Source of the DNA: Candidatus Nomurabacteria bacterium
Lineage (GTDB): Bacteria > Patescibacteriota > Minisyncoccia > Phycocordibacterales > UBA9973
Direction: 5' to 3'
Length of the DNA: 64,000 bases
NCBI GenBank assembly: GCA_943350445.1
Contig: CALRAE010000002.1
Coordinates: 2,134 to 66,133, forward strand
In this document: positions 17,335-19,290 of the stretch, in pieces
Layout: each line of letters opens with the position of its first letter
Position numbering within the stretch: position 1 is the first letter of the stretch
Position numbers and translations under genes: made by a program
Notes under the pieces: model-generated
The model's input: only the letters and a program-made list of their open reading frames with translations
Databases searched by the model: none
Told to the model about the DNA's origin: nothing

Positions 17335-19290
17335 TTACGGGGTCGTAGGTTTTACAGTTTGAAATTTTACTTTCTCCTCCTTACCCTTAATTATTTTATC
17401 TAGTTGAAATACTGAGTTAAGTTGAGTAGTGTCTTTTCTTACAGTCATCGAACCATCTCTATTTAATTTAATTTCGAGTAGCATGCCTTTCATGGTTGGT
17501 GCACTCCATGATTGATCAAAGATGAAATTACCGAGGGAATAGGCTATGTAGCTCGCGCACGAACTTTGAGTGCAGCCTTTTCTGCTATAAACCTCTATGT
17601 CTTGCGGCACGTGTGGATGATGACCTATAACTATTTTCGCTCCTGCATCTACAGCTTTATGTGCTAGCTTTTCCTGTCTTGCGTCATGCTTTGTCTTGTA
17701 TTCTTCACCAAAGTGAAAAGAAACCACTAGATAGTCCACCTGCGCGCTGGCATCTTTAATTATTTTATCGAAATCTGGGTCGTTGGCGAGTAATATGCCC
17801 ACGTTGTCATCTTTTACTGCCATATAGTCTGGTCCTTTGTCGGAGAATCCAATGAAGCCTATTTTTATACCATATTTTTCGATAATCGCTGGTGTTACTG
17901 CTTCCGCTCTATCGTTTCCTCCACCTGTGTAAAGTATTTCGTTTTCCTTTAAGCGGGCCAATGTGTCAGTATAAGCGGCACGTCCCCAGTCTCCGACATG
18001 GTTGTTCGCCACAGACAAAATGCTAATGCCTGCGCCACGAAGTGCTGGTATGACAGATCCGTCCATTCTAAAAGAATATAAATTCCCCAAATCTGTGCCT
18101 CTATCTGAAGCCGTGCCTTCCAAGTTGGCAAAAACTATATCTGAGTTTTTAAGTAAATTTACTAGATCTTTCTTTTCAAAAAGTTTCGAGTAGTCATTAT
18201 TGAAATTTTTCCTAACTGAACTTTTTACTCCACGGTCGAGCATAATGTCACCTCCAAAAATAAGTGTAACAAAATTGGGATCTTTAATATCTGGCATTCC
18301 GACTCTTTCTTCTACCCAATTTGTACTAGCATCAGATGCTCCGCCGTAATATACATTTTTCTTCAAATATTTTAAAATAGCCTGCACATCTTTTTGTCTA
18401 TCTGAGCTTTGGAGTAAAGTAATAGCAATAGGACGGACACCTTTTTGTCCAAGCGGTAGATTGAAAAGAGACACGACGGTTTGTTTGGCAGGGTCAGTGT
18501 AGCCACTTTTCCCTCCAAAATATCCGTCCATTCCTAGAAATTGGCTGATGTTTGACCAAGATTGTTTTTTATTGCTGTAACTACGTTTACTTGTAATTTT
18601 AATTAAATCCGGTTCCTGCTGTGTTAGATATCCTGCCAATTTAAACATATCAGAAGCTGTGGATTGGTTATTTATGGAAAGTCCGCTTGGATCTCCATAT
18701 GAAGTATTTACCATTTTCAACTTTTCTGCCTGTTGATTCATTTTAGCTATAAAGTTATCTCGTCCAAAATGTTCTGCGAGTACCTCTGCTGCGTCATTGC
18801 TTGATTCCAAAAGGAGGGGGTATAAAAGCTCTGAAGTTTTTATATTTTCTCCCAACTTCAGCTCTCCATTTGCGCCATTGGTAAGAAGAGCTGTTTTGCT
18901 CACCTTTGCCTTCTCATCTCTAGCTGATATTTCCTTCGCGACTAGCGCAGTCATTAGTTTTGATACTGAGGCGATAGGGTATTTCTCTTCTTGGTTTTTT
19001 GAAAGTATGACTTCTCCTGTATTCAAGTCTCCAACTAAAAACGCTTTTGCTGATATTTTGGGCTGTATGTTAGTATTTTTATTAATATAAAAATATTTTG
19101 ATTTTTCACCTGTCAAAGATTGCACCACTGTCGCTCGATTACTTTCTGGATGAAATGTTTTTCCGGGGTAAATATTTTCAAAAGTGAGTGATATGAGCGA
19201 CACGAGAGAAATGCCTAATACTGCCGGGGGCAATATCCAAAAGAATAATTTCATCTTCGATGGTTTTTTTGGGTTTAAGTGATGACTCAT
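17335..19290 (-). CDS. Fusion protein: N-terminal D-Ala-D-Ala carboxypeptidase (S11/PBP5 family) + C-terminal CapA/PGA_cap metallophosphatase-like domain
   Basis: SxxK (SVSK), SxN (SSND) and KTG-like (KSGYTD) motifs in the N-terminal half. CapA-type motifs LIFGGDIMLDRGV and FANLEGT in the C-terminal half. N-terminal TM helix. Confidence 0.6.
   Translation of the reverse strand: MSHHLNPKKPSKMKLFFWILPPAVLGISLVSLISLTFENIYPGKTFHPESNRATVVQSLTGEKSKYFYINKNTNIQPKISAKAFLVGDLNTGEVILSKNQEEKYPIASVSKLMTALVAKEISARDEKAKVSKTALLTNGANGELKLGENIKTSELLYPLLLESSNDAAEVLAEHFGRDNFIAKMNQQAEKLKMVNTSYGDPSGLSINNQSTASDMFKLAGYLTQQEPDLIKITSKRSYSNKKQSWSNISQFLGMDGYFGGKSGYTDPAKQTVVSLFNLPLGQKGVRPIAITLLQSSDRQKDVQAILKYLKKNVYYGGASDASTNWVEERVGMPDIKDPNFVTLIFGGDIMLDRGVKSSVRKNFNNDYSKLFEKKDLVNLLKNSDIVFANLEGTASDRGTDLGNLYSFRMDGSVIPALRGAGISILSVANNHVGDWGRAAYTDTLARLKENEILYTGGGNDRAEAVTPAIIEKYGIKIGFIGFSDKGPDYMAVKDDNVGILLANDPDFDKIIKDASAQVDYLVVSFHFGEEYKTKHDARQEKLAHKAVDAGAKIVIGHHPHVPQDIEVYSRKGCTQSSCASYIAYSLGNFIFDQSWSAPTMKGMLLEIKLNRDGSMTVRKDTTQLNSVFQLDKIIKGKEEKVKFQTVKPTTP

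Follow-up and report, generated by a model that had tools for sequence, protein, structure and literature searches.

A fused S11 peptidase and CapA-family protein at a housekeeping locus of Candidatus Nomurabacteria and its possible role in peptidoglycan stem-peptide processing

A stretch of 64,000 nucleotides from a Candidatus Nomurabacteria assembly (contig CALRAE010000002.1, positions 2,134 to 66,133; hereafter the window, in whose numbering all coordinates are given) encodes a single polypeptide that joins a peptidase of family S11 to a CapA/PGA_cap domain. The gene lies on the minus strand at 17335..19290 and is a complete and uninterrupted open reading frame (ORF) of 651 amino acids with an ATG start. 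Judged from its sequence, this one chain carries an intact S11 serine DD-peptidase module together with an intact metal-enzyme domain of the CapA/PGA_cap type. We consider it fairly probable that the fusion is a bifunctional extracytoplasmic enzyme, which processes the stem peptides of the organism's own peptidoglycan. The window protein is an ordinary member of a large conserved family of the candidate phyla radiation (CPR), and its architecture is already present in the databases. What is new is the suggestion that the CapA clade of the CPR belongs to peptidoglycan stem-peptide processing.

According to Pfam and an AlphaFold2 model, the chain is arranged from the N- to the C-terminus as transmembrane (TM) anchor, S11 domain, linker and CapA/PGA_cap domain. 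The S11 part is a penicillin-binding catalytic domain of the DD-carboxypeptidase/endopeptidase type and spans residues 72-315 (18346..19077, on the minus strand like all elements of this gene), as supported by Pfam, phmmer and Foldseek. The model PF00768 (Peptidase_S11) matches residues 72-274 with an E-value of 1.3e-39 and 136.6 bits, compared to a cut-off of 27.6. All three active-site motifs are present in canonical order and are invariant in an alignment of 28 homologues: the SxxK motif S108-V-S-K111 (18958..18969) with the nucleophile serine and the general-base lysine, the SxN motif S163-S-N165 (18796..18804) and the K(T/S)G motif K261-S-G263 (18502..18510). Structural comparison of the predicted fold using Foldseek resulted in matches to the penicillin-binding structures 3mfd, 3it9, 4k91 and 6azi (E 1e-16 to 5e-19, root-mean-square deviation 2.5-3.3 Å), and the matched proteins comprise DacB (3mfd, E 5e-19), PBP6, PBP5 and endopeptidases of the PBP7 type. 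DacB of Bacillus subtilis was also recovered by phmmer (E 1.7e-31) and is 35% identical in the Foldseek alignment. Serine DD-peptidases of family S11 remove the terminal D-Ala from pentapeptide stems or cleave DD-crosslinks.

The catalytic fold and the SxxK, SxN and K(T/S)G motifs are shared with the low-molecular-weight penicillin-binding proteins (PBPs) of family S11, including DacB/PBP5* (3mfd), PBP5 and PBP6 of Escherichia coli, DD-endopeptidases of the PBP7 type (6azi and 6muq) and the K15 DD-transpeptidase of Streptomyces, with Foldseek E-values of 1e-17 to 5e-19. The window protein has neither the C-terminal beta-sandwich nor the C-terminal amphipathic anchor of PBP5. Instead, an N-terminal TM segment serves as its anchor, and the CapA domain stands at the place where PBP5_C would follow the S11 catalytic domain. 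A reading of the DNA that was made from the sequence alone had described this half as PBP5-type, which has to be corrected: PBP5_C (PF07943) has no Pfam match at E<=0.1 anywhere in the 651 residues and, as the anchor is N-terminal as well, the sequence assigns this half to peptidase family S11, not to the PBP5 architecture. Further elements of the sequence-only reading were confirmed, namely the assignment of both halves (E 1.3e-39 and 8.7e-67 in the Pfam search), the motifs SVSK, SSN, KSG, LIFGGDIMLDRGV and FANLEGT, which are all present at verified coordinates, and the TM anchor.

The CapA/PGA_cap domain occupies residues 338-643 (17362..18279) and is predicted to adopt a calcineurin-like fold, with support from Pfam, identity to CapA and Foldseek. 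PF09587 (PGA_cap) covers residues 342-593 over the entire model (positions 1-255 of 255, E 8.7e-67, 225.7 bits at a cut-off of 27). This half is 32% identical to CapA of Bacillus anthracis over about 300 amino acids (E 1e-38), and the motifs GD, NLE, NNHxxD, H[FW]GEE, GHHPH and YSLGNFxFDQ are aligned between the two proteins. At the sequence level, this half is a member of the PGA_cap/CapA family. The only solved structure that matches the CapA half is that of MslH (8gq9, E 1.9e-16, 17-18% identity in the structural alignment). Of the PGA_cap family, MslH alone has been characterised both in its biochemistry and in its structure. It epimerises the C-terminal Trp of a lasso peptide. For this reaction, it binds Ca(II) through Glu44, Asn87, His259 and His261, and the C-alpha proton is moved by two dyads, His88/Asp91 and His295/Asp11 (PMC10406935).

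Out of eight MslH residues that are essential according to mutagenesis, seven are retained in the window protein (MslH/window: D11/D348, E44/E391, N87/N430, H88/H431, D91/D434, H259/H526 and H295/H560). They are located in a series of short blocks, whose conservation was followed in 88 CapA domains. The first block, LIFGGDIMLDRGV (residues 343-355, 18226..18264), includes D348, which is equated with Asp11 by motif correspondence and not by direct alignment, and which is Asp in 86 of the 88 domains. FANLEGT (residues 387-393, 18112..18132) contributes E391, the equivalent of the metal ligand Glu44, which is Glu in 87/88. Within ANNHVGDWG (17983..18009), N430 corresponds to the metal ligand Asn87, and H431 and D434 correspond to the catalytic dyad His88/Asp91; the position of D434 is Asp in 77 domains and Asn in the other 11. 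HFGEE (17701..17715) provides H526 for His259, but G528 replaces His261. The second glutamate of this motif, E530, is invariant (88/88) and is also found in the HWGEE of B. anthracis CapA. GHHPH (17611..17625) contains H560, the equivalent of the second catalytic base His295. Finally, the most conserved block of the CapA family, YSLGNFIFDQ (17512..17541), which also served as the pattern in a scan for relatives, contains N588, D592 and Q593, the latter one being conserved in 85/88.

Taken together, D348, R353, E391, N430, H431, H526, E530, H558, H560, N588 and D592 are each conserved in 86-88 of the 88 domains, and the putative catalytic and metal-binding residues are kept down to 36% identity. 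One or two sequences of the alignment deviate at several of the putative catalytic positions. A loop that follows the NLE motif (residues 393-408, SDxGxD...YSF, with S395, D396, G398, Y405 and F407) is conserved within the CPR clade and differs in the CapA proteins of Bacillus; such a divergence would be expected for a different substrate.

The only TM segment of the protein is formed by residues 15-37 (LFFWILPPAVLGISLVSLISLTF, 19180..19248, mean Kyte-Doolittle value 2.2) and is covered by a helix of residues 13-39 in the AlphaFold2 model. It is preceded by four Lys/Arg and not a single Asp/Glu residue, and a positively charged N-terminus of this kind argues for an N-in topology, which would place the two catalytic domains outside the cytoplasm. 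The sequence therefore implies a type-II membrane-anchored protein. The AlphaFold2 model (mean predicted local distance difference test score, pLDDT, 74) shows the TM helix, two separately folded domains and a low-confidence linker between them (residues 316-337). In addition, the alignment of 28 homologues revealed an optional insert of nine residues with two cysteines, which includes the motif CTQSSC (Cys-x4-Cys, 17557..17574) and is found in some homologues only. Judging by its sequence, this insert probably forms a disulfide loop, which would fit the extracytoplasmic location, as does a DsbA-like gene encoded in the window.

Several lines of evidence show that the two domains are indeed translated as one protein. 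An identical protein is encoded on six contigs of independent assemblies (e.g., ENA ERZ27280223 and Logan ERR3719144). In total, 1,235 database proteins match the fusion at E<=1e-5, and each of the best 120 matches contains both Pfam domains at 66-84% identity; the named sources among these 120 are Candidatus Nomurabacteria, Paceibacterota and the Patescibacteria group. A single S11+CapA reading frame was found in 19 mapped loci, as described below. The interdomain linker itself (residues 316-337, 18280..18345) combines low model confidence with invariant residues: Y314, Y315, G316, G317, T323, W325, G331, P333 and I335 in or at the linker are identical in all 28 aligned homologues, which indicates that the junction is translated and under selection. 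An artefact of assembly or sequencing, which would have joined two neighbouring genes, could be thought of because split arrangements exist in some relatives (L037 and L045 of the loci below). However, the independent contigs, the hundreds of homologues and the linker that is conserved at the protein level rule it out for practical purposes, leaving it a negligible probability, and the single-polypeptide fusion proposed by the sequence-only reading is real.

To learn about the distribution of this architecture, we searched a library of 1.84 billion cluster representatives (50% identity) completely and without a filter. Dozens of clusters, which fall into three length classes, gave one alignment spanning both the S11 and the CapA half, down to 35% identity. 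A Pfam scan of 43 chosen cluster representatives detected S11 together with PGA_cap in all 43. Some of them have two PGA_cap domains, and others carry additional domains: an N-terminal YkuD (L,D-transpeptidase) domain in 12, VanY (M15B) in six and a polysaccharide deacetylase in one. In a scan of species-representative genomes, the CapA half had at least 595 relatives, of which the best 80 come essentially all from metagenome-assembled genomes of Patescibacteria. These 80 loci were combined with seven loci from look-ups of the exact protein, and the domains in the resulting 87 loci were mapped by phmmer. S11+CapA is encoded by at least 15 of the species-representative genomes, which belong to Paceibacteria (Nomurabacteria and relatives), and in all of them the gene is located directly downstream of the RNase R gene. 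Taxon labels of some loci (e.g., Flavobacteriaceae, Gammaproteobacteria, Pacearchaeota) could suggest a spread beyond the CPR, but they were treated as unreliable and not counted; at least L026 shows the synteny typical of the CPR.

The map of the 87 loci revealed a slot between rnr, the gene of RNase R, and a convergent smc gene, in which the gene X encodes a CapA domain in every case. S11+CapA is the content of this slot in 19 loci (15 of them among the 80 genome loci). YkuD+S11+CapA and CapA+VanY were found in four loci each, S11+VanY+CapA and CapA+CapA in one locus each, and CapA alone in six loci with the gene in the rnr slot (including L038). In three loci the modules are split: a YkuD+S11 gene overlaps the CapA gene in L037, a separate VanY gene follows the CapA gene in L038 and an S11 fragment is followed by CapA in L045. 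CapA is thus the constant core of the housekeeping slot (rnr, X, convergent smc) in this CPR lineage. When the CapA domains were placed in a rough neighbour-joining tree, the CapA-only members were nested within the fused clades, which indicates that the accessory modules were gained and lost repeatedly, with CapA staying in place. Proteins of the types YkuD+S11+CapA, S11+CapA+VanY and CapA+VanY (unnamed CPR proteins, e.g., P0122, P0128 and L030) share the CapA clade, the rnr-smc slot and the N-terminal anchor with the window protein, which represents a two-domain version in comparison to these YkuD- or VanY-bearing relatives: no YkuD or VanY module is present in it, and no gene for one is encoded elsewhere in the window. 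For the VanY-type partner, the NCBIfam models of VanXY and LdcB score alike and both stay below their cut-offs, so that DD- and LD-carboxypeptidases are not separated. As an observation in its own right, the rnr-smc slot of L036 (5932-9796) contains two tandem CapA domains in one gene, followed by a third CapA gene.

In more distant CPR genomes, the CapA-only gene lies away from rnr, and a PG_binding_1 protein is encoded within 5 kb in 14 loci. These neighbours are often directly adjacent and on the same strand, and include proteins with Amidase_3+PG_binding_1 and SBP_bac_5+PG_binding_1. The CapA gene of these genomes also often follows a gene for an FtsQ-type POTRA protein. Two loci with CapA-only genes of distant CPR (L054, 8684-10669; L057, 3631-5610) encode family-5 solute-binding proteins of the oligopeptide type with an inserted PG_binding_1 domain, which may bind muropeptides.

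In the window, the RNase R gene is located upstream of the fusion gene on the same strand (19287..21260, minus), and both genes share a stop/ATG overlap of 4 nt (ATGA), which makes their co-transcription probable. Adjacency to RNase R was seen in 28 of the 80 genome loci, and the order rnr, fusion gene, convergent smc is kept even in a relative whose fusion protein is only 66% identical. The neighbourhood consists of housekeeping genes only, encoding RpoB/C, TrmD, KhpA, S16, RNase R, SMC, RNase III, a NusB-NUDIX protein, ThrRS and GyrB. Promoter-like sites between 16.5 and 22.1 kb were uninformative, as 15 were found and 13.1 are expected by chance. MreB, MreC, a protein of the YceG/MltG type and an FtsA-like protein are also encoded in the window, which indicates that the organism builds a peptidoglycan wall.

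How could the two modules act together? A functional coupling is supported by the relatives, as their fusions and split genes link the CapA clade to S11, to VanY-type (M15B) and to YkuD enzymes. The S11 module would remove the terminal D-Ala from stem peptides or cleave DD-crosslinks, and the CapA module would likewise act on the stem peptide. The known and proposed substrates of the CapA family have in common an N-acylated residue with a free alpha-carboxylate, namely the C-terminal Trp of MslA and the gamma-linked Glu of poly-gamma-glutamate (PGA). Stem peptides offer such residues in the form of the terminal D-Ala, before or after trimming by S11 or VanY, and of the gamma-D-Glu, and we therefore favour a metal-assisted epimerisation at C-alpha. 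By analogy to MslH, we tentatively propose that the CapA module may be an extracytoplasmic stem-peptide epimerase of the nascent or assembled wall, which would apply metal-assisted acid/base chemistry to the C-terminal D-Ala or to gamma-D-Glu; this is a possibility in which we place limited confidence. In such a scheme, the bound metal would hold the free alpha-carboxylate, and the two His/Asp dyads would abstract and then return the C-alpha proton, resulting in an epimerised residue. This residue could be the C-terminal D-Ala that the S11 or VanY module exposes, or the gamma-linked D-Glu of the stems, which is chemically the unit of poly-gamma-glutamate. The fusion could then hand the product of one step straight to the next at the membrane surface. 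To our knowledge, the cytoplasmic MurL is the only other enzyme described to epimerise a precursor peptide of peptidoglycan.

A related role was proposed for CapA itself by the discoverers of MslH, who regarded it as the epimerase that puts D-Glu into poly-gamma-glutamate (PMC8179263). This proposal agrees with the shift of the D/L ratio of the polymer from 75/25 to 5/95 in the absence of pgsA (PMC6029982); a survey of the literature on PgsA, epimerase and PGA since 2020 found no biochemical proof. Compared to MslH (PDB 8gq9; PMC10406935, PMC8179263), the window protein has the fold match and seven of the eight key residues in common. In contrast, it is predicted to be extracytoplasmic and membrane-anchored, whereas MslH works intracellularly, with a ribosomal precursor peptide as its substrate. 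A gene cluster for lasso peptides or other ribosomally synthesised and post-translationally modified peptides (precursor peptide, B1 protein) is not present at the fusion gene, whose neighbours are rnr, smc, rnc, nusB and thrS. On the basis of its sequence the CapA half is thus not an MslH equivalog, but it may work like MslH.

Several points weigh against the proposed role in stem-peptide processing or against its epimerase part. A biochemical activity is known for no member of the CPR CapA clade, and fusion to peptidoglycan enzymes shows a common process or location, not a chemistry. Epimerase activity has been demonstrated for MslH alone, which is 17-18% identical in the Foldseek alignment, and the NCBIfam model of MslH (NF038314) gives 54.3 bits with the window protein at a cut-off of 700. 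The MslH metal ligand His261 corresponds to Gly528 here, as in true CapA, with the invariant Glu530 nearby. The CapA half is closer to CapA of B. anthracis (32%, same motifs), so that a PGA-related role is possible from the sequence. The S11 half may be a carboxypeptidase or an endopeptidase: its best structural match is the carboxypeptidase DacB, whereas its best NCBIfam match is a PBP7-type endopeptidase model, far under the cut-off. Finally, the predicted TM-score (pTM) of the AlphaFold2 model is 0.52, and the mutual orientation of the S11 and CapA domains is uncertain.

Of the alternative explanations, a role of the CapA half as in Bacillus, i.e., in the synthesis or export of a poly-gamma-glutamate capsule, appears improbable to us, the fusion coupling polymer handling or anchoring to wall trimming in this case. 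It could draw on the similarity to B. anthracis CapA (32% identical over about 300 amino acids, all family motifs shared) and on automated annotations as a poly-gamma-glutamate synthesis protein. As in CapA/PgsA of the CapBCA(DE)/PgsBCA systems (B. anthracis pXO2, B. subtilis), PF09587 is matched at full length, the motif set is the same and an N-terminal TM segment precedes an outward domain. The systems differ in the surroundings of the gene. From the cap genes of B. anthracis pXO2 (capB, capC, capA, capD and capE), we took CapB and CapC and compared them with all stop-to-stop ORFs by phmmer, and no match to either at E<=0.01 was obtained in the window and the 87 related loci (1.06 Mb), although capB, capC and capA are contiguous on pXO2; the search covered the window and these loci, and pgsB and pgsC could lie elsewhere in the genome. 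B. anthracis CapA, used as a positive control, matched all 87 loci. Likewise, the Pfam-scanned ORFs of the window (most ORFs of at least 120 amino acids) contained no likeness to a poly-gamma-glutamate synthetase. The fusion gene does not stand beside capB and capC, the arrangement of CapBCA/PgsBCA operons, but in a housekeeping block with rnr, smc, rnc, nusB, thrS and gyrB. It is fused to a peptidoglycan peptidase, every fusion partner known from its relatives is an enzyme of peptidoglycan stem peptides, and the loop of residues 393-408 is conserved in the CPR clade and different in Bacillus CapA. No literature was found that ties CapA to a capsule in Patescibacteria. In B. anthracis, the polymer is anchored by CapD, annotated as a gamma-glutamyltransferase on pXO2, and not by CapA. 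The coupled function suggested by the sequence-only reading therefore has to be divided: wall trimming gained support from the fused and split genes with S11, VanY and YkuD, whereas polymer anchoring or processing did not, as CapB and CapC are missing from the 1.06 Mb.

The CapA half could also be a metal-dependent hydrolase, either an LD-carboxypeptidase, a gamma-D-Glu endopeptidase or an amidase, or a phosphoesterase acting on lipid- or wall-linked polymers, and we regard this as rather unlikely. The fold of MslH is that of calcineurin-like metallophosphoesterases, a family that consists mostly of hydrolases, but the second metal site typical of phosphoesterases has been lost in MslH, the sole solved PGA_cap member (PMC10406935). 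A further trimming step would fit the co-occurrence with sequential trimming enzymes (S11, VanY/LdcB-like). His261 of MslH is not kept, and a metal site of another kind could be formed with the invariant Glu530. On the other hand, both His/Asp dyads of MslH are retained (D348, H431 and H560 in 86-87/88; D434 in 77/88, with Asn in the other 11), and we know of no peptide-bond hydrolase in the calcineurin-like fold. That the CapA half lacks catalytic activity and serves only as a spacer or binding module, which would replace the C-terminal domain of PBP5 and position the S11 domain above the membrane, is very unlikely. CapA does occupy the place of the missing PBP5_C, but a spacer of this kind is at odds with the conservation of the putative catalytic and metal-binding positions, which are retained in 86-88 of 88 domains (D434 being Asp in 77 and Asn in the other 11) at identities as low as 36%, and with a locus where CapA is constant and S11 is dispensable.

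The CapA/PgsA family is widespread, and its biochemical role has been unclear for decades, the sole characterised relative, MslH, being a peptide epimerase. The very small genomes of the CPR keep a CapA clade as a housekeeping gene, which is repeatedly fused to enzymes acting at the D-Ala end of stem peptides. Stem-peptide processing by the fusion thus suggests a defined substrate for CapA-type domains that can be put to the test, namely cell-wall peptides and not a capsule polymer, and points to a cell-wall maturation step, so far undescribed, in a large group of bacteria that is still uncultured. Databases name this architecture automatically as 'CapA family protein', 'D-alanyl-D-alanine carboxypeptidase' or 'poly-gamma-glutamate capsule biosynthesis protein', and the latter annotation is probably misleading for such proteins. 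If the epimerase proposal were true, it would mean a stereochemical editing of the cell wall after export, which was previously undescribed, and would reveal a general biochemical function of the CapA/PGA_cap family outside the capsule producers. Our literature searches found nothing that describes an S11+CapA fusion or ties CapA-type domains to peptidoglycan in Patescibacteria. A search for CapA and Patescibacteria led to poly-gamma-glutamate of Cloacimonadota and not to the fusion, a search for MslH and peptidoglycan returned no work on CapA-type domains acting on peptidoglycan, and none was found for CPR and glutamate racemase.

Among the neighbours of the fusion gene, the SMC homologue (14464-16596, plus strand) has a length of only 710 amino acids, and lengths of 710-820 amino acids were found in every relative mapped. 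SMC proteins usually comprise about 1,180 amino acids; the short form looks like a lineage-wide feature, presumably with a much shortened coiled coil. Between smc and the fusion gene, and convergent to the latter, an ORF at 16617-17306 (plus strand) encodes a protein of 229 amino acids with an N-terminal TM segment, a Q/N/T-rich linker and a sub-threshold match to PsbP_2 (E 0.003). At the same position, L005 encodes a protein that is similar in size and unrelated in sequence. A fusion of NusB (PF01029) and NUDIX (PF00293) with 314 amino acids (12780-13724, plus strand) recurs beside RNase III in 23 related loci. The GyrB of the window (8001-10067) consists of 688 amino acids without an intein, whereas GyrB in the relative with the 66% identical fusion protein (GCA_028718635.1; L003, 20473-21917) has 1,125 amino acids and contains an intein (PF14890). 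The local GC content reaches 0.47 within 22001-24000, compared to a window mean of about 0.38, and an ORF of 79 amino acids with a lipobox-like VAPGC is located near this rise (22001-24000 and 21454-21693).

Elsewhere in the window, four ORFs had no Pfam match at E<=0.001-0.01: 57140-58435 (431 amino acids), 52566-54146 (minus strand, 526 amino acids), 38332-39048 (238 amino acids) and 24156-24926 (256 amino acids). A protein of 365 amino acids with Sigma70 region 4 and HARE-HTH (56029-57126, plus strand) is encoded between BipA/TypA and an unannotated ORF of 431 amino acids. The alanyl-tRNA synthetase (60995-62761, plus strand) has only 588 amino acids; it retains the catalytic core and the SAD domain, but apparently lacks most of the usual C-terminal region. 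Lastly, an ORF at 45768-48800 (plus strand) encodes a tail-fibre-like surface protein in this CPR genome, with 1,010 amino acids, a Peptidase_S74 domain (endosialidase intramolecular chaperone) at residues 750-803 and, at its C-terminus, a bacterial surface Ig-like domain.

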